A stretch of 64,000 nucleotides of DNA from Octopus sinensis (lineage: Eukaryota), in NCBI RefSeq assembly GCF_006345805.1, contig NC_042998.1:95852001-95916000 (forward strand), in the 5' to 3' direction. A program made the position numbers and the translations under genes. The notes under the pieces were generated by a model. It was not told the origin of the DNA. It saw only the letters and a program-made list of their open reading frames with translations, and did not search any database. Of this stretch, positions 3,126 to 64,000 are shown piece after piece (position 1 is the stretch's first letter; every line of letters starts with the position of its first letter).

Positions 3126-3781
3126 CTAGCAGCTAAGCCCGGTTTCACCCGGTCTGTTTGGATGATGTGGCTGTGATCGTTTTCGATTAGGCATAATCTA
3201 TAACAGAGTTTCTCAACCTTATCATTTCGTTATTCGTATAAAATTTTTACAATTGTTGATTTATGGAAAAAATTTTGTTAAATTTTTGAAATGCAAATAT
3301 GTGAATGAAAATTAAGTTCAGACCTCTACATGGCAGCTAGGCCTGGAAGAAATAGCAGCCAAATCTCCCTCAAAACACCCTGTCTTAATCCGACAATTCT
3401 GCCTGTTATGTAGTTTGAATGAGAAACTGTATCTAAAGATGAAGATTATTAACCCCAGAAAGAGGTGAAAGAAGAGAGACAGCATAGCGAAAGTTTTGGC
3501 TGACTGTCATCCTGTACTCCCCTTGTTGCTAGCGAAATGGTATATACCGGCTGTGTGAGCAACTGGTTGTTTTAATGGCAGAACAAACAGGGGAATTCCA
3601 TTAGAAAAGTCTTAATCGATTTTCTCGGTAACTATGGGGATTAGGAAATAAATACAAACTGCATTTCAATCTATGCACCCGTCTCCACATGTGTGCCATT
3701 TTTCATAGGAATCCACCCAGCCGTTTGGCTGTGAACCTCAAGACAATAAAGAATACAACGATCGCCCATGTCCAATTTATG

Positions 3782-4009: not shown

Positions 4010-4672
4010 AATTTGAAGATATTATATGCAAACTGTTAATAGTTTGGATGACGTCATCATCATAACAGCCACTCAGCATACATTTGTACTGGAAAAACTG
4101 ATGAATAATCTTAAGCCCCGGTTCATCGTGGAAAACTATTTGCACAATGCTAACTTTGACTGCATTTATTTTTTACTTAGGCAATGTTTTCAACAAAGGC
4201 GACAGATAAACTTGATGTTAATGCCTGAGAAATCTTGACATTTCCGGTGTTTGATTTCTGAAATGCAAGCACCAAATGGTTGCAGCTAATTGCATGTTGT
4301 CAATGAGCTCCCCAAAGCATTATTTGCCGAACTGTCTAGCTCATTATTATGCTATCTGAGGGTGTTCAGATTGAGAAGTCTCCATTTACGCGGAAGACGC
4401 TAATTTGCCTTTAGAACAGAGGCAACGCTCGCTTTTGTACCAGTCGGGACAAGGCATTAACATCAAGTTTGTCTGGCGTCGTTGTTGTTAATATTGTTAA
4501 AGTAAAATATAAATACAGTCAACGTTTGCATAGAAAAAATAGTCTTCCACAGTGAACCGGTACTGAAAATGTATTCATCAATTTTCCCAGTACAAAATGT
4601 ATGTTGAATGGCTGTTATGATGATGTCATCTTCCAAACTTTTAACAATTTGCCACAAGGTATCTTCAAAGTT
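4010..4672. mobile_element. Old foldback/MITE with about 220-bp diverged inverted arms
   Basis: 4010-4230 aligns with the reverse complement of 4452-4672 (e.g. catcatcataacagcca; aaacttgatgttaatgcct). ORFs 4026+ and 4463- mirror each other. Confidence 0.7.
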
Positions 4673-13653: not shown

Positions 13654-13760
13654 GTATTCGCTACGGCAGTACATATTCTAAAATTGGAACGATACAGAGA
13701 AGATTGGCATGGCTCCTGCGCAAGGATGACACGCAAATTCGTGAAGCGTTCCATATTTTT
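13654..13760 (+). pseudogene. RNU6: U6 snRNA full-length copy, probably a retropseudogene
   Basis: 107 nt, GTATTCGCTACGGCAGTAC...ACAGAGAAGATTGGCATGGCTCCTGCGCAAGGATGACACGCAAATTCGTGAAGCGTTCCATATTTTT. The AGC triad reads GGC (13706), an ISL C is T (13714), and no TATA box is present near -30. Confidence 0.92.
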
Positions 13761-15029: not shown

Positions 15030-16860
15030 CAAAATTTTTTCAAGTTTTTAGGCTTTCTTTCACTAAGAACCATAGCTCGATCTGTGATTATATCTTTTAA
15101 TTCATTACTTTGAGCAATGGTTGGTAGATTTGCTTTGGCAATGTTGAAGATATTCTGGTGACATGGGCTGTATGTCACTAATAGGTATGACTTGTTCCTC
15201 TTCTCCTTTTCTTTGGGTTGTTCTCAGTTGTTGTATGGGTATTTTAAAGCCCGCTGTATGCCATTTTCTACAAGTAGAGACGAGTATTTTTGTTTGAGCA
15301 AAAATTCTTTTAGTTCTGTTAGGCGTTTTTTCCTGATATTTGCATTTTCTACAATGGTACAAATTCTTCTGACTAGGCAGTATGTGATGTTGAGTTTTGT
15401 ATATGGTGGGTGGCACGACTTAAAATTCAGGTTTTGATGTGTGTCCGTATGTTTGTAGTATATATCTGTGATAATGGTGGTGTCCTTTTTAATTACCATT
15501 ATATAAATTGGAGAGATGGGTGTAGGTTGTTCAGGAGGATTTTGAACTCTTTCAGAGTATTTAGAGATTCTGTCCAGATTATGAAACAATCGTCAAGGCA
15601 TCTCTTCCATGCCTTTTCGATATAATTTCTAAATCCAGTGCTATAGTTTTCCTCTACTTCTTGGTAGAGTTGTTGTTTTAGATATCCCATTACAGAGTTC
15701 GCGTAAACGGGAGCAAACCTCGTTCCCATCGCCATGTCTTTACCTTGGATGTAATTATTTCCATTGAAGAAGATTGTGTAGTTTTCCAGAATAAGTCTGA
15801 CTGTGTCTAATATAAATAGCACTGTGAATCTGTTGGGGATCACTTCTCTGTGTTTTTCTACCTAGTATCTAATCGCCTTTATTCCTAAAGCATGTGGAAT
15901 ATTGGTGTTGAGGCTTACCACATCAAAACTAAGTAGAAGTGAATTTGTTTCAGTTGTTTTGGGAAGATGGGATTGGAAGTCGATGTCATCCCGGATGAAA
16001 CTGGGTATGTAGGTACATAGTGGTTTCATAACAATGTTAATAAAATTGCTTAGACGGTGGATAGGGCATGCTGGAGCAACTATAATAGGACCTAAGTTTT
16101 AAGTCTTTTGGATGCAATAATTTTATGTACTCACTTTTTTGTTTTTAATGCATGCCGAATATCTTTTTATTTATGTATTTTCGCTAAGCTGTAGAAGTTG
16201 CTGGGTTTTGGTTCGAAATCAGTGATGTAGTCTCTTTCATTATCGGTGAGTTGTGGTGTTTTGAAACAAGGTTTTTGATCTTCTTCATGGTGTGGTGGTC
16301 TATATTTGTAGGAATTTCACAATAGAAGGTTGTGTCCTTTAGTTCGTCCTCAACCAAATCCTTATAGCATTCTGCATCCAGAATAACAATTGCACCCCCT
16401 TTATAGCTTGTTTAATTATTATTGTTTGATCGTTTTGTATACGTTTAAATACAGACATTTCAGATTTGTTGAGGTTTGGCCTAATATTAGTATTGCGTTT
16501 AAGGGAAAATTTTAACAGGGTATCAATGTATTGCTCAAGATAGTGATTTCTTCCTTTTGGTGGGGTGAAGTTTGATTTATTCTTTACTAGGGATTCATCA
16601 ATCTCATTACTATTATTAGTGAAGAATTCTACAATTCGTAACTTACGACAGAATTTTTGGATATCTTCTTTTAGTTCATGGTGGTTGACAGTTGGTGTAA
16701 GTGTAAGTTTCAGTCCTTTTGAAAGAAGTTGGATTTCATCATTGTCAAGATCCCTTTTGGATAAGTTAATTATTTTAGGATTTATATGTTCAGTTGTTTT
16801 GGGTATGTTTCCTCTTGGATTTATTTTTATTTCTCCGGTGTTTGTTGTCCAATCATACAC
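15030..16860 (-). pseudogene. Penelope-like element reverse transcriptase pseudogene (GIY-YIG domain not seen)
   Basis: IINLSKRDL..LLSKGLK, NLNKSE...IIIKQA (DKG-motif region), FDVVSLNTNIP, MAMGTRFAPVYAN, WKRCLDDCFIIW and YYKHTDTHQNLNFKSCHP, with many frameshifts. The 5' end abuts a (TA)/(TG) microsatellite. Confidence 0.85.
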
Positions 16861-21115: not shown

Positions 21116-22188
21116 CACACACACACACACACACACACAAAGCCTCTCTTGACCAGAAATGGCGTGAACTCTTTGCATGAACACCCCTGTACATAACTCC
21201 ATGTCCCCCTACATGGCCTTGCTTTTTGCTTTTTAAACCAAAAAATTAACTTGACTTAACAAATGGTTGGAGCTCAAACAAAAATATGGAGTATAACCTT
21301 TGGTAAAATATATTCTTTCTACTATAGGGATAAGGCTTGGAATTTTGTGGGAGGTGACTGCTCGATTACATGGAGACTAGTACTCAACTGGTACTTATCT
21401 CATCGAATCCCGAAAGGGATGAAAGATACAGTCGTCCTCTGCGCAATATGAACTCAGAACGTAAAGACGAGAAAAATGCTACAAACATTTTGTCCGGTGC
21501 GCTAACGATTCTGTCAGCTCGCCATCTTAAACCGTGATGAAATATATAAAAGTAAAACACATTTGTATTTTCAGTACAATCGTAGCACTCTATCTCTCTT
21601 TCTCTCCCCCTATTTCTCTCTCTCCTCGTATACATATACATGCATACGTATATTCATACATAACTCGCATACATATACACATGCACACAAACATATACAT
21701 ATAAATTTGTATATATACATGCATACATATACATACATAATAGATGCATAAACACACAAACACATTCATACGTAGATAGCTAGCTAGCTTGCTAGCTAGA
21801 TAGATAGATCCATGGATTGAGGTATAGGAAGAAGGTGTGCTTCAATAGAGGTGTTTCGTCTGCCGTTACGTTCTGAGTTCAAATTCCGCCGAGGTCGACT
21901 TTGCCTTTCATCCTTTCGGGGTCGATAAATTTTAAGTACCAGTTACGCACTGGGGTCGATGTAATCGACTTAATCCCTTTGTCTGTCCTTGTTTGTCCCC
22001 TCTGTGTTTAGCCCTTTGTGGGCAATAAAGAAATAAGAAAATATAAAAAGCAACTTTCAGGAACAATAGCGATTTATTGGGGTGGAATGTTGTGGATTTT
22101 TTCCTTATCGAAGTACGATAAGCCGAAAAAAAGTTATTCCATATTTCACGGTAGGCAATCAGGGTTTCCAGGTATACCAATAAAAATC

Positions 22189-22505
22189 TATGAGTTAAGG
22201 AATGGAGTAGGGAAAATCCGGGCTACATATGTTTCATAAAAAGCGGAACCTTAGAAGTAGTAAACATCCAAGCGAGGTGTAAGGGTACCATGATTAAATG
22301 AAGTTTATATCTACATGTTAACACACAGAAAATTCGATCGAATGCCTCCTAACGACAATATAAGCTTCATTTAATCAAGAGATACTCTTGGTCTGAAGAG
22401 AAGCCAGTGGTATACACCTCGCTTGTATATTTACCACTTCTGTGGTTCCGCTTGCTATGAAACATATGTAGCCCGGATTTCATCTACTCCACTCCTTAAA
22501 TCTTA
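22189..22505. mobile_element. Foldback MITE-like element
   Basis: About 90-bp terminal arms (aaatccgggctacatatgtttcata / tatgaaacatatgtagcccggattt), an inner 20-bp arm pair, and TA at both ends. Confidence 0.75.
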
Positions 22506-28104: not shown

Positions 28105-28160
28105 CATTGACCCGCGGATGACGAGACACAATATGTTGAAACACCGGTGTCCTAGAATCA
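28105..28160 (+). ncRNA. Decayed hammerhead-like motif
   Basis: CGGATGA (U4 changed to G), stem II gaca/tgtt, GAA, palindrome acaccggtgt, then C. Stem I is poor. Confidence 0.4.
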
Positions 28161-29520: not shown

Positions 29521-29566
29521 TGATTCGCAATTCAATGATGATGTGTAGTGATTAGTTTGACTATAT

Positions 29567-29824
29567 ACTCGACAGAAACCTAAATCTAAAGATGAATTGT
29601 TTCGATTTTTGTTTGAAGAGTGGGCAGAAATTCCACAAGAGACAACCACGAAGCTCATCAGTTCAATGGCAAAAAGAGTTTCTGAATTGAAAACTGCAAA
29701 GAGAATGTCAACTAAACACTAAAGTAAATAGTCCTACCTATCGATTACATTTCAATTGTTCACTTTGCGAATTAAATAAACGATTTTGAAAATTATAGGT
29801 ATCTATTTATTTCCTGCATGTTTG
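29567..29824 (+). mobile_element. 3' fragment of the Tc1 family at 35641-36917
   Basis: Near-identical to the reverse complement of about 35641-35897, including the TIR. Confidence 0.85.
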
Positions 29825-29829
29825 TGTGC

Positions 29830-29924
<95 letters not shown>

Positions 29925-34989: not shown

Positions 34990-35527
34990 GTCATGGTGAT
35001 GGTTTGATGGTGTACTGCTAGCCTCATCTACTATAGCTTCTTAAACCTGGAAAAACCATTACTGCACAAACATATTGCTATGAAATTGTCAAAATGAACG
35101 AAAAACTACCAATCCTCCGCCCCAGACTGGCCAACAGAAGAGGACCAATCATTCTTCATGACAATGCTCGCCTACACGTTTCACTAATGACACTCCAACA
35201 GTTGAGGGAACTTGGCTACGAAGTTCTTCCCCACCCAGCGTATCGCCCAAACGTTTCTCCTACCGACTACCACTTTTTCAAGCACCTTGATGGTTTCCTA
35301 CGAGAGGAGTTCAAAAATCAAACCGATGCTGAAAATGCGTTCAAAGAGTTCATTTACTCCAGAACGCCAGATTTTTATGTTACCGGAATAAATAGACTTG
35401 TAACTAGTTGGCAAAAATGTGTTGATTGTAATGGTACTTACTTTGATGAACAAAATTTTCGCATTGTTGAAATATATTGTGAAGAATTTCATGTTTCAAA
35501 ACGTTGCTTACCTTTTTAACTCAGCCT

Positions 35528-35530
<3 letters not shown>
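34990..35530 (+). mobile_element. Mariner transposase 3' half with right TIR
   Basis: ILHDNARLH, LPHPAYRPNVSPTDYHFF and WQKCVDCNGTYFD (DD34D catalytic region). Confidence 0.88.
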
Positions 35531-35560
<30 letters not shown>

Positions 35561-35588
35561 TATATATATATACACAACACACACACAC

Positions 35589-35630
<42 letters not shown>

Positions 35631-35640
35631 CACACGCACA

Positions 35641-36917
35641 CAGACATGCAGGAAGTAAATAGACACCAATAATTTTCAAAATCTTTTATTTAATTCGCAA
35701 AGTGAACAATTGAAATGTAATCGATAGGTAGGACTATTTACTTTAGTGTTTAGTTGACATTACCTTTGCAGTTTTTAATTCAGAAACTCTTTTTGGCATT
35801 GAACTGATGAACTTCGTGGTTGTCTCTTGTGGAATTTCTACCCGCTCTTCACGCAACAATCGAAACAATTCATCTTTAGATTTAGGTTTCTGTCGAGTTT
35901 TTCGTATGACTCTATCTAGTATGCTCCAAAGATTTTCAGTTGGGTTCATGTCAGGAGATTGACTCTGACAAGGAAGCTTTTTGATCCCATTTTCAGTCAA
36001 CCATTGTTGATTCCTTTTCGCTGTGCGGCATGGAGCCCCACCTTCCATGAATAAAAACTCATTTTTTTGTTATGTTATCATGTGAATACATCGGAAGTAG
36101 TCCTTGCTTAAGAATTTCGATGTATTTTTCAGAGTTTATGGTTCCAACACATACATTCGATCAGCTCAGAACGACCACTGATGGTGACAGCTCCTCATAG
36201 CATTACAGAGATACCGCCATGTATTCACAGTTGGTTGGAGTTGTTTCAAATCAAATTCTTGATTGGGAAGCCTCCAAATCCAAACATGTCCACTGTCTGA
36301 AAATAATGCAAATCTGGATTTATCTGAGAAAATCATTCAATACCAAAATGAACTGGATTTTTCTGACATCTCCTTAGCCCATATCTTTGTTTTCATGATA
36401 TTAATTGGTTGAAGGAGAGGTTTTCTTCTAGCTGCTCGTTCATAATACCCAAGCTTATGCAGATATGTAACACATGTTCTTGGACTGACTTCTAGCTGTT
36501 TTGCAATGTCAGAAGCCTTCGAACAGGGTTCGTTTTCCACAATTCTCATCAAACAGCGAAGCTTCCTTTCCGAGGGTCCAGGTCGGCAGGGGCGAGAATC
36601 TGTTGATTCTTTTCCTTGACTTTTGAATTGCACTATAATTCTATTAACAGCAACAAGAGGAATTTGAAGATTTTCGGCAATTTTTCGCTGGCTAAAACCA
36701 GCCTCAGATTGCCCAACAATACGACCTCTTTGAAAATCTGACAGTTCTGTTGAAATTTTTGTGCGTGGCATGGTTACTCTTCGCAAATGTTTAATATAAT
36801 GGCACCTGGAATGAAAAAGTATAATTACATTGTAAATTCTACACCGCTGAAAACATTAAGACACTTAAATCAGAAATTTTGAAAATTAAAGATGTCTATT
36901 TACTTCCTGCATGTCTG
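35641..36917 (-). mobile_element. Tc1-like transposon, full length, transposase (about 36771-35743) disrupted
   Basis: TIRs cagacatgcaggaagtaaatagaca at both ends. [26 protein letters not shown] and QSPDMNPTENLW motifs, with a stop and frameshifts. Confidence 0.92.
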
Positions 36918-38034: not shown

Positions 38035-38193
38035 GTTTAAGAGACAGAAACACCCTCAAGCAAATTAATCATCATTGAATGACATTATCCACAATAAGTA
38101 CATATAGGACTAAATATTAAAATTATCAAAATTAATACCTACAATTCTTATTCCAAATTATCAAAATTAATACCTTCAATTATTATTTCAAAT

Positions 38194-38315
38194 CATATAC
38201 TTTACTACGCGCGTTTCATTACAACATATTCCTCGATATTGCTGAAATAGAATGTGTCTAAATACAATACCATATTAAAATGATTATATTGCCAATCTTC
38301 AGGTTTAACATATAT
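38194..38315 (-). ncRNA. Type-I hammerhead, core intact, stem I weak
   Basis: CTGAAGA (38302-38296), long stem II (ttggcaatata/tatgttgtaa), GAA, palindrome acgcgcgt, then A. Confidence 0.55.
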
Positions 38316-39405
38316 GAACTTATTTTGCTATTTACATCCTTTATAAAGACATGACAAACTAAAATTATATAACTAGAAGTTGTTGGAATAATTTTACTTT
38401 TCCTACTTTCATTCCACATTTCTGTTATTATTTACTAAATAGCAGTTAGACGATACAAAAAAGAACAGGAGATAACAAGGACGGATCATTCGGAGCTTCC
38501 TATCCTCAGTCGAGTACCAGATCGTCGTTGCAGTTTCGGCTGGTTACACACGAGACTGCTCCAATCTGGCTGGCCCCAAGAAAATCTAAGTTAAAAGCAT
38601 TAGACTCCTTAGAAGAAAGCAAACGAAATTATACGAAAACAAGGATGCACCCCCCCCCCGAGAAATGGAACACAAATACAATTACGAACAACAGGATATT
38701 AACAAAAGGTGTCTTTCGACTAAGGACAAATTAAATTAAGCTCGCGTGTGTGGAAGTGAATCCTTACGGCGGGAACATAAGAGATGAAAGTCGTGAGAAG
38801 GAATATAAGAGATGCTTCACGGCTGGTAGTCGAACCAAGAAAGAAAGGTCAGGCTTAGTGGAACGCCGGTCACGTGGAAGGAGAGAAGAGAGGTAGGGGG
38901 CAGAAGGATCGAAAAATTAAGGAGGGACGAGAAAGAGAGAAAAAGAAAGGAAAGGAATAGAGTGAGGTAAAAGAGGGGGATACAATCATATATATTTGTA
39001 TGTACTCGTTTGATCTAAATTCGGCATAAATCGGTATAATCACTTCTCATTATTTGCTTTGTTTGTTTTATTTTAAGCTGTGCCAGCTGTGTCAAGAGAT
39101 GATGACCTGAATTATTTTTCATCTAATATGCTTCTCTGGGTCACACTGTATATAAATGCAGAAGCAATCGTAAAATATCTTAAGATTCTGTGTAGGTGGG
39201 TAATTACTAACTGACGGACGCAAAGTAATATGGGCTTGAAATTTTGGCACAAGGCCAGCAAGTTCAGGGGTGGGGATAAGTCGATTGCATCGACCTCAGT
39301 GCAGAAATGGTACTTATTTTATCGACTTGGAAAGGATGAATGTCTAAGCTGAAACTACTACTACTACTACTGCTACTACTATACTACTACTACTACTACT
39401 ACTAC

Positions 39406-49301: not shown

Positions 49302-49905
49302 ACTAAGCAATAAGGGTTTAGCAACGAGTTGCCTTACCACATACCGAATTTAGAAATAGCAGTCAAAGGGTTATAGCTATTTCTTCTACTAAAAAGGGAG
49401 ATCTCAGTAAAAACAGCATTTGGAAGGCAGACACAAACAGGTAAGAGAGAATGAATTAACTGCAATCTATCATACATTTTTTTAGTTATCCACGGACGTA
49501 CGTTTCGAAATCAAGTTTTAAGGAAAGCATAAGAATTAGATATTAAATATTAAATAATAAATATTCTATCTTACCGAAACTTCTTTTCTCTTCAGCGTAG
49601 AATACTAATATCATAAATGATTATATATTGAATTTTGAGATACCAGAAGGCACCAACTCCACTCAGTATCAGAGCGAGCTAGAATCCGCAACTGGTATCA
49701 CGAATTCAATTGTGAATGAAACGATTGTGTCAACAGCCCCTTCCCACCCGCGTGTAGCCAAAACAAGATGCTGTGGTCATCTACTGAGATAAAATATGGT
49801 TATCCGTAATTGAGGGTGAAATTAATAATTTGGAAAATAAATCAATTACACCAAGTAGTCTTCGGCATGTAAAAGCCTCATTCGAGGAAAATTTAAGTAA
49901 TACAT
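49302..49905 (-). mobile_element. Non-autonomous hammerhead-bearing element, monomer inserted in (TA)n
   Basis: Shares blocks with 912-1679 in the same order: ccacatac.gaattt..tagaaatagcag.caaa, hammerhead, ccaccc.cgtg, attgagggt.aaattaat, atgtaaaag. Confidence 0.7.
49490..49600 (-). ncRNA. Minimal type-I hammerhead ribozyme with extended stem II
   Basis: ctacg CTGAAGA gaaaagaagttt...aaacttgatttc GAA acgtacgt C cgtgg. Full core, G10.1-C11.1 pair and GUC triplet, with predicted cleavage at 49495/49494. Confidence 0.85.
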
Positions 49906-52045: not shown

Positions 52046-52272
52046 TGTGTGTGTGGTGTGTGTGTGTGTGTGTGGTGTGTGTGCGTGCGTGTGTGTGTGT
52101 GTGTGTATGTGTGTGTGTTTGTGTTTTTGTATCTGAAAGGTGTGTTAAGGAGGAAAGGTCAAGTTGTTAAAAACAATCAGTCATTGGCTTTTAGCAATGA
52201 TCAAGCCAGCTGGGAGCCAAAATGTCATATATATAAATGATAGAAAATGAATGAACGACTTTCTTTATTTAA

Positions 52273-52380
52273 AATCACTACAATTGTTTTGATACATTTT
52301 TGCACGTGTTGTACATTGGTGAGATTCTGTATAATGATTAGCATACATCCATGATGTAAAATGCACGTTCTCAAGTGATT
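52273..52380 (-). ncRNA. Decayed hammerhead
   Basis: Stem I aatcac/gtgatt, stem II gtgcatttt/aaaatgtat and palindrome acaattgt+A are retained, but the core reads TTGAGAA and AAAA. Confidence 0.5.
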
Positions 52381-52975
52381 GCTTAATTAAGTGCTGAGTT
52401 AGATCGTTATTTCACTCAATATGAGAATGCACACCCAAAGCGATGTGTCATTTTCAGCAGTTTACAAGCAAAACTATGATACTGATAACACAGCATCTCA
52501 TCTATGTACAAATACAAAAATGTGTCGAGACAATTGTACTGAGTTTAAATGAATATCATTCGATCCATTTTCTATCATTTATCTATTTATATAAACAGTA
52601 TGGAATTCCTGATGTATATCCATATCAGGAATTCCATAGCATTTCCACTGTATGACATCAAGTAGCGAATAATTGTGGACGAATAATATGTATTCACACA
52701 AACACACACACATATATATGAATATGTGAGTGCATGTATATACATACGTATATGTATGTATGTCATTATTTAGTTTTATTTTAAGATTTCTTGCCAATAG
52801 AGAAAAAGTCGGTTTCTAACCTAAATCCAAGGCTGCTTCATTGTAATCACAACAACATCCAAGGGATATGCTGCATGTAGTTGTGTATATTTGCAGTATT
52901 TGGAGACAGCGCATGTGCAGATTTGTGTTTTATGTATGTATTCTGATGCATATAGTTCCATGTCTAAACATCCGC

Positions 52976-62795: not shown

Positions 62796-63046
62796 TATAG
62801 ACATATATGTGTGTGAGAACATTTTGAACATTTTGTAGTGTCCAAAAAGTTAGATTTGTAATAAAGATTCTTTATATCAAAGAAGTAGCTTGCAATTGCA
62901 AGTATTTAGAATATGAAAATATAACAAGTAAAAAATGTGACATGAGCACTTACAGGATTTAATCCTATATAAACTATATAAACTCAGCTAACAGTTAAAA
63001 AATGGAGAAGAGAAGATGTTAAAAGCTTTTATAAAGTTTTAATCCA

Positions 63047-63160
63047 TGCATACGATCGTTTCAAATGATAATACCAACATGTAAGAAACATGGAAAAATT
63101 AAATTAATTATAATAATAATCAAATTGATTTAATTACGTATTACCATTCTCCTCAGTGCA
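63047..63160 (-). ncRNA. Minimal type-I hammerhead ribozyme with extended stem II
   Basis: tgca CTGAGGA gaatggtaatac...gtattatcattt GAA acgatcgt A tgca. Full core, 12-bp stem II base (two G-U pairs) and GUA triplet, with predicted cleavage at 63051/63050. Confidence 0.85.
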
Positions 63161-64000
63161 AAAGATAAAGCTAACATCAAAAAAGGTATTAACAAAAGAA
63201 TATTACAATGAAACTACAGAGAGCCTGTGTCGGATAAACTCGATCGGATATTCATAAAAAGATTGTGAAAGAGGGAAAAAGAGATATAGGAACATATTTA
63301 TGTAGTGTTGAGTCTATCTTTGTAAGAACTAGAACTGTTTTGGCCAATTGATATTTTTAAATATATATATTCTTTTGCTTGTTTCAGTCATTTGACTGTG
63401 GCCATACTAGAGCACCACTTTTTCAGTCAAAGAAATCAACCCCAGGACTTATTCTTTGTGAGCTAGGCAATATATGTATTACAAAAAATATATGTATGGG
63501 CCATTGGTGAATATAACAAGTAATCAAGTGTGGAACATCAGGAAAAGTTGTTACTGACTGTAGATTTATTGTGTTGTATAACAAAGAATAGTTGGCATGA
63601 ATAAGTGACCAGATGTTAAGGCGGCAACCACTTGAAACTTGTTGAAACAAAGGCAGGCATCAAAAGCAGGAAGCAAGTGGAGTGTCTCACAAACTGAAGA
63701 AGGGGCGGGTTGTCTGCATGTGGTTTGTTTAGATCAGAATTGCTGGACAAAAGCACCATTGGATCAATGTTTCTAGGAAAGTAATTACTGGCACTTGTAT
63801 TTCTGTTAGAATGATAAGGGATTGTCTGTGTCTCAGTGAAGAACAAATACAACAGAGGAATTTTATTTGAAAACACTGCATTTATTTTCCCTTGCTTTTG
63901 TTTTGACCTATATATATATATGAGTGCATGTGTATGTGTACGTGTGTGTGAAGGAGGGGCATTGGAGGAGGTGGCCTTGTGCCTGATGAGAGGTTAGAGT

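Follow-up and report, generated by a model that had tools for sequence, protein, structure and literature searches.

Type I hammerhead motifs with long stem II domains and palindromic stems III in a 64-kb window of Octopus sinensis

The stretch of DNA analysed here, called the window below, comprises 64,000 nucleotides of Octopus sinensis with 37% GC and is rich in microsatellites and decayed mobile elements. Positions 63047-63160 of its minus strand hold a real type I hammerhead motif with an unbroken core, named h4 in our study, for which cleavage is predicted. Read 5' to 3' on that strand, it begins with the 5' arm of a 4-bp stem I (63157-63160) and the catalytic core's first half, CUGAGGA (63150-63156, C3 at 63156). 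These are followed by an 87-nt stem II domain (63063-63149), by the second core half GAA with the palindromic, 8-nt stem III sequence ACGAUCGU (together 63052-63062, the palindrome at 63052-63059), and by an A at 63051 as H17, after which the 3' arm of stem I closes the motif (63047-63050). The stem II domain consists of a 12-bp basal stem (63138-63149 with 63063-63074) bearing two hairpins, one AU-rich (63097-63135) and one short (63078-63092). Its fold reaches -17.4 kcal/mol, which none of 300 shuffles equalled (z -3.4), and its basal pairs have probabilities of 0.69-1.0 at all four flank lengths considered. The probability of stem I falls to 0.05 or less once 80-150 nt of flank are included, which counts against activity of this copy. 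Placed from the hammerhead consensus, the predicted cut lies between 63051 and 63050. An earlier note on this DNA had expected RNA 5' ends at minus-strand positions 63050 and 49494, and these match H17 at 63051 and, in the motif h3 described next, at 49495, all of them being predicted positions only.

Other hammerhead motifs lie in the same window. On the minus strand we identified h1 (C3 1157, H17 1107; 30-nt stem II domain, palindrome ACGUUAACGU), h2 with a complete core (C3 38302, H17 38206; 78 nt, ACGCGCGU), h3, which is intact and has a 6-bp stem I (C3 49595, H17 49495; 82 nt, ACGUACGU), and the decayed long-stem motif h6 (C3 52374, H17 52279; 77 nt, ACAAUUGU), with a 6-bp stem I and three core changes. 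On the plus strand there are h5, with a complete core and weak stems (C3 22393, H17 22470; 59 nt, ACAUAUGU), and a decayed short-stem motif at 28118-28151, with one core change and a 13-nt stem II domain (ACACCGGUGU). The core CUGANGA / GAAA / UH, in which H is not G, is present in h1 to h5. Both stems close it only in h4 (4 and 12 bp) and in h3 (6 and 4 bp): the first stem II pair of h1 is an A.A mismatch, and in h2 a U.U mismatch opens stem II and only 2 stem I pairs adjoin the core. The earlier note had described intact hammerheads at four sites, each with a different palindrome. The unbroken CUGANGA...GAA-A...U-H core and the palindromes were found as it claimed, but only the motifs with C3 at 63156 and 49595 are fully intact. 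That note does not list h5 (C3 22393, palindrome ACATATGT), whose core is the fifth complete one. As for the palindromes that it regarded as decayed, ACAATTGT at 52280 fits the decayed long-stem motif h6 and ACACCGGTGT at 28141 fits the decayed short-stem motif, while at ACCGGT (625) no core was found within one mismatch.

It is important to consider that such motifs might be chance matches in AT-rich repetitive DNA, as our searches permit a long free spacer and one relaxed match, at 4617, looks accidental. Two sets of counts leave this reading with a negligible probability. First, a strict descriptor, requiring a palindrome and a stem I and stem II of at least 3 bp each adjoining the core, found two sites (h3 and h4; h1, h2 and h5 fail it), whereas 60 locally shuffled windows gave none under any of the six settings used, and a relaxed descriptor found six sites where 100 shuffles averaged 0.04 and never exceeded 2. 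The earlier note had named a similar motif frequency in shuffled sequence as a sign against its proposal, and no such similarity was observed. Second, a control pattern scan restricted to ACG-WW-CGT palindromes returned 28 viral loci and at least 122 metagenome loci (9 of 64 parts scanned; about 940 estimated), and none of the 150 sequence-only matches listed from viral and metagenome contigs formed both stems, nor was a relative found among them. For h3 and h4, the shuffle and control counts rule chance out. Many of the metagenome matches (for example L036, L038, L041, L042 and L045) are CRISPR-like direct repeats that hold both hammerhead core strings by chance. The 124 Rfam matches in the window (E up to 1) include no hammerhead family, and focused searches of 62900-63300 and 900-1500 (E up to 10) reported none either; the likely cause of this non-detection is the long stem II.

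From h1 to h6, the stem II domains measure 30, 78, 82, 87, 59 and 77 nt. Arms of about 80-90 nt had been claimed for three of the motifs; the lengths of 78, 82 and 87 nt bear this out for whole domains, not for each arm, and the domains are not one helix. The domain of h4 is branched as described above, and those of h2 (78 nt) and h3 (82 nt) are interrupted rods (z -1.9 and -1.2). The h5 domain comes close to being structured (z -2.9, with 2 of 300 shuffles as good), and those of h2, h3, h1 and h6 are not clearly structured in comparison with shuffles (z -1.9 to -0.1). Likewise, none of the whole-motif monomer folds clearly exceeds its shuffles (z -1.8 to +0.5). The new part of these observations is the 59-87-nt stem II, which is beyond the published descriptor and missed by Rfam. 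Our literature search, made mostly among papers outside subscription, returned no report of a 60-90-nt stem II domain in dimer hammerheads. Most likely, the lengthening of stem II is tolerated on condition that its base stays paired.

Related copies of the h4 repeat were sought in sequencing runs, 20 of 24 of which contain part of the stretch and five of which contain half or more; contigs from four of the 24 were aligned to it at 80% likeness. Three runs with three organism labels contain 697, 758 and 301 related contigs, contigs of the flanking repeat being counted in. In these three runs the summed depth over the ribozyme, which is not a copy number, exceeds that of the upstream part by a factor of 3.5-4.8 and that of 62891-62995 by a factor of 8-12, and similar depth peaks stand outside the ribozyme at 62849-62890 and 62996-63037. 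The first of these, a well-kept short minus-strand segment near the 3' end of the repeat with a depth peak in all three runs, could serve, as a guess, as a recognition signal for the copying enzyme. Among the best-supported 40 of 162 variants, and bearing in mind that aligning contigs to one copy favours similar ones, none falls in the 27 positions of the core, palindrome, H17 and stem I, and seven fall in the stem II of h4. All three variants in the basal stem retain their pair: two change a G.U to G-C, one of them at the canonical first pair, and the third changes U-A to U.G. The other four comprise two that lower the fold energy (by 3.9 kcal/mol in the inner arm, and by 0.8) and two that raise it slightly (by 0.1 and 0.3 kcal/mol). 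Since 14 of the 24 possible transitions would retain a pair anyway, the three pair-keeping transitions are weak alone; the stem II variant pattern, likewise weak alone, fits what selection on structure might produce. In run X20, presumed to be RNA, only a short, shallow piece is present, at 63037-63066, and it runs across the predicted cut site, where contigs cannot show ends.

The palindromes bear on how many molecules a functional ribozyme would need. In a monomer, stem III has 2-3 bp at best and is unfavourable (+0.4 to +2.4 kcal/mol); in a homodimer it is a helix of 8-10 bp worth -7 to -13 kcal/mol. Unconstrained co-folding of two h4 or two h3 molecules yields a double hammerhead in which each stem II stays intact and stems III and I are intermolecular. 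This register appears in five of the six same-motif pairs and in none of the 15 mixed pairs. That a palindromic stem III favours dimers, as the earlier note held, agrees with these computed folds. A different possibility is that the motif works as a monomer, with the palindrome forming 2 bp and a tetraloop, the long stem II giving a tertiary contact or a protein site, and dimers being optional. Precedents speak for it: according to the accessible parts of PMC7229834, 22% of an axolotl hammerhead that has a 2-bp stem and a tetraloop is cleaved within an hour in monomeric form, and a mussel hammerhead in which the usual tertiary nucleotides are missing has a cleavage rate of about 0.1 per minute. 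The 6-bp stem I and 4-bp stem II of h3, each closed by an internal loop, have canonical helix lengths, and most copies in the window are solo. However, stem III costs a monomer up to 2.4 kcal/mol, the first 12 bp of the h4 stem II are uninterrupted so that the canonical loop position is empty, all seven motifs compared have perfect palindromes that a monomer does not need, and stem II varies from 30 nt in h1 to 82 nt in h3 within one family (see below). We consider the monomer unlikely.

The earlier note went further and proposed that each family carries its own dimerisation code, pairing and cleaving only with its own kind. The first part, pairing with its own kind, is what the co-folds predict; a family-specific code held by the palindrome is not supported. 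If such a code were selected, each family would keep its own palindrome as a barrier between co-resident families, and some observations are in line with this: homodimer stems III are worth -7 to -13 kcal/mol against +2.0 to -5.4 kcal/mol in mixed pairs, mixed pairs never reach the active register, and the palindrome is retained between h5, h6 and their diverged partners and holds no variant of the h4 family among the best 40 of 162. Other observations speak against it. Stem I is swapped too, and none of the 30 cross-family combinations of stem I arms gives 3 pairs beside the core, so that this stem on its own prevents mixing. If the AC..GT ends are kept constant, 16 palindromes of 8 nt exist, and five drawn at random all differ with a probability of 0.50; chance would thus produce distinct palindromes half of the time. 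Four of the six long or intact motifs have ACG..CGT in common, with cross-pairing of -1.5 to -5.4 kcal/mol, and h1 and h3, members of one family, carry different palindromes. Furthermore, tandem copies on one transcript pair in cis in the established model (PMC4209133 and PMC6765202, in their accessible parts), in which case other families need not matter, and it is unsurprising that partners with 82-87% identity retain the same 8 bases. The homodimer preference is what any self-complementary motif yields; there is no sign of selection for distinct palindromes, and a selected code appears highly improbable.

The hosts of these motifs were delimited on both strands. The h4 host copy spans about 62818-63365 on the minus strand, with its 3' end at a short TA/TG run, where the depth of related contigs drops (62807-62827), and its 5' end truncated beside another repeat. 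The truncation is indicated by other copies that continue past 63365 with a common sequence: loose contig ends beyond this point agree on one consensus in runs X1 and X10. The host unit of about 62800-63370 given previously describes the extent of this copy closely, but not that of the repeat. The remaining minus-strand hosts are a 564-bp unit for h1 (909-1472) with an upstream partial copy (1470-1679) and a (TA)n end, the whole spanning 909-1679; a truncated unit for h2 (38036-38450) with a (TATC)n end; a solo 603-bp unit for h3 (49303-49905) with (TA)n on either side; and the h6 host (52235-52590), which has an inverted partial copy on the plus strand at about 52475-52586. The h5 host lies on the plus strand (22170-22503), and its inverted partial copy, on the minus strand at about 22190-22283, starts inside stem II. 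Simple-repeat or TA-rich ends are present at all six hosts. The two halves of the h1 direct repeat are identical at all 207 aligned bases, with 3 gaps; h5 and its partner share 78 of 90 bases, and h6 and its partner 90 of 110. The h6 pair scores 121, where 200 shuffles reached 41 at most.

The statement in the earlier note that the flanks differ is false for the motifs with C3 at 1157 and 49595: homology between their host units gives a score of 127, and the best of 60 shuffles reached 54. Thus h1 and h3 are one family, with 564- and 603-bp units that have homologous ends. Both units are highly structured and non-coding, with folds at z -4.5 (h1) and z -5.2 (h3) relative to 40 shuffles, and they follow a common plan of an end-joining stem, side hairpins and a long arm tipped by the ribozyme. 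Changed pairs are retained in well-aligned helices in 9 of 13 cases (P 0.12) and 10 of 13 cases (P 0.013), a modest excess over the null of about 6.6, and three pairs are compensatory. The fold of the h4 unit is unremarkable (z -0.7), and the units of h4, h2 and h6 stay at z about 0. Around the ribozyme, h3 and h4 have a weak likeness (score 75 against a best shuffle of 65) that may be just the core and AT richness. A 15-nt motif recurs at 968-982, 1532-1546, 3348-3362 and 49352-49366, that is, in the 3' region of the h1/h3 units and in a repeat at 3130-3770; the latter was tried as an h1/h3 relative and rejected, as it is not homologous overall despite this common motif.

Penelope-type insertion signs are visible as the partial tandem at h1 and the inverted 5'-truncated partners at h5 and h6, and neither is present at h4. 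Together with the microsatellite ends, the insertion patterns of h1, h5 and h6 match Penelope hallmarks described in PMC8557442 and support Penelope-derived hosts, which appear to be non-autonomous or truncated elements. No two complete hammerheads stand in tandem in the window: the first core half is missing from the upstream h1 copy, and the longest array amounts to 1.4 units. None of the three truncated partners starts at the cut site. Their starts (1679, about 22283 and about 52475) lie about 9, 57 and 66 nt upstream of it, inside the ribozyme, and hence the templates would have been RNA that was uncut or re-joined there. Structure within the ribozyme may stall the reverse transcriptase at such 5' ends, or the template may be a circle.

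Coding capacity in the window was examined as well. A broken Penelope-type reverse transcriptase occupies 15035-16776 on the minus strand; it is frameshifted, its endonuclease end is missing, and it is 30-52% identical to proteins with reverse transcriptase and GIY-YIG parts, its relatives carrying RVT_1 and GIY-YIG domains. No hammerhead was found downstream of it, tblastn with six related proteins detected this region only and no Penelope coding remnant beside any ribozyme in the window, and Pfam searches of 22 selected frames gave transposase-type and HTH families only, with nothing near the ribozymes. The window also contains a full-length U6 snRNA copy (13654-13760, plus strand, 106 bits), as well as remnants of Mariner/Tc1-type transposases and a pair of 300-nt inverted repeats that are 94% alike (29560-29859, 35037-35905; 36337-36855).

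The state of these copies raises the possibility that they are dead relics, in which once-active ribozymes have left no present copy that cuts and the long stem II is later AT-rich slippage. Only two of the six long or named motifs are fully intact, the insert is very AT-rich, and the sole Penelope coding copy in the window is the frameshifted one that lacks its endonuclease end. Two facts make this reading distinctly unlikely in our view. First, the long domain is common to many related copies in three runs, which means that it was already present while the family spread, and the frequent variants retain or improve pairing. Second, the identity of the h1 tandem halves over 207 bases points to a recent insertion.

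The explanation that we consider probable places h4, as a type I hammerhead that works as a dimer, close to the 3' end of a repeat derived from Penelope, either a truncated terminal repeat or a non-autonomous retrozyme-like element, and in one of several families of the genome with a stem II lengthened to 59-87 nt. We infer transcription, cleavage, dimer formation, circles and a partner element from known relatives in the following scheme. An RNA transcribed through two copies would juxtapose two ribozymes, whose strands would be swapped, so that the 8-bp stem III of the palindrome and both stems I form between the copies, and each long stem II would fold separately, outside the core. Each ribozyme would then cut after its GUH triplet and release a unit-length RNA that is possibly circularised. 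Penelope reverse transcriptase and endonuclease, acting in trans, would copy this RNA into microsatellites, and the copying would leave solo units, partial tandems and inverted truncated partners. Since a matching stem I and stem III would both be required, family specificity would be automatic.

A broader proposal would be that a large, uncounted set of active dimer hammerheads exists in many Penelope-derived families of the source genome and probably of its relatives, that the 60-90-nt stem II is functional in them as a tertiary support or as a signal for the reverse transcriptase, and that stem I and stem III together confine processing to one family. We hold this to be doubtful. If it were true, five long-stem motifs of apparently different families within 64 kb would imply that an entire size class escaped earlier counts. 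Because the limit on stem II in published searches is about 25 nt and Rfam recognises none of the motifs found here, counts of self-cleaving RNAs in some animal genomes may be low, and some elements labelled as lacking a hammerhead may deserve renewed inspection. The h1 and h3 units constitute a natural experiment, in which one family plan is combined with two palindromes and with stem II lengths of 30 and 82 nt. Neither a new mechanism nor a role for the host follows from the finding of motifs. What merits further attention is that several families within 64 kb have a long stem II; the family code is a by-product unless genome-wide counts differ.

Much of the architecture has been published before, namely the palindromic stem III, dimer cleavage and differences in palindrome from family to family. 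The accessible parts of PMC4209133 give the palindromic consensus 'GAAAN-palindrome-NUH', which the motifs of the window match, together with a dimer model and low activity, Penelope hammerheads being slow to cut even as dimers. Its Fig. S3 includes Aedes families of one genome that differ in palindrome. The window motifs resemble these minimal, palindromic Penelope hammerheads (Cervera and de la Pena 2014, PMC4209133, and Lunse et al. 2017 as represented in citing reviews) in type I topology, core, short stem I, palindromic stem III and predicted dimer action, and further, on the side of PMC4209133, in a preference for G-C as the first stem II pair, in mostly solo or truncated copies, in inverted pairs and in family-varying palindromes. 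They differ in stem II: the PMC4209133 descriptor specifies 3-7 bp and a loop of 3-10 nt, and the motifs of its Fig. S3 are short hairpins, whereas the domains of 59-87 nt found here are branched or interrupted, so that the descriptor fails, and are accompanied by palindromes of 8-10 nt. Within the window, the motifs have no coding region attached to them. Elsewhere, in what is accessible of each source, the legend of Fig. S8 in PMC3088659 mentions a palindromic stem III in several ribozymes, 'long helix II' in PMC13725137 denotes 6 bp, and eight of nine Xenopus dimers assayed in bioRxiv 10.64898/2026.07.22.740005 gave no cut; further hammerhead literature, likewise partly accessible, includes PMC6466107 and PMC6962438.

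Metazoan non-LTR retrozymes, as described in the accessible parts of PMC7229834 and bioRxiv 10.64898/2026.07.22.740005, are proposed to be non-autonomous derivatives of Penelope that occur in solo, dimer and multimer forms. Like the window units, they are non-coding, AT-rich and self-paired, with one type I hammerhead each, and the 565-600 bp of the window units fall within their range of 51-972 bp. Self-pairing of the retrozyme kind is present in h1 and h3, but not in h4, h2 or h6. In contrast to the window, with at most 1.4 units and a long stem II, classical retrozymes have canonical short helices, loop-loop contacts and tandem arrays.

Finally, elements of the Hydra, Naiad and PLE-X clades (Craig et al. 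2021, PMC8557442, in its accessible text and supplement) have several characteristics of the window hosts. A Naiad origin, suggested by a 'half-core' remark on Octopus, was rejected: unlike in the window motifs, the Octopus Naiad 3' end carries, by eye, GAAA before CUGAUGA and a hairpin before GAAA, and none of five GAA-plus-palindrome strings from the window occurs in the accessible PMC8557442 supplement. The reversed order of the core halves in Octopus Naiad, again by eye, is possibly that of a permuted ribozyme. The octopus Hydra motif described there differs from the window motifs in its short stem II. On the other hand, (TA)n targets, partial tandems and inverted truncated partners are common to these clades and to the window, and the same source describes a family-specific stem III that is in some cases a perfect palindrome. 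It also contains the nearest precedents for a long stem II: in a spike moss, a motif whose stem II domain measures about 53 nt, and, among Naiad elements, eight 'half-core' cases with a spacing of 35-50 nt.
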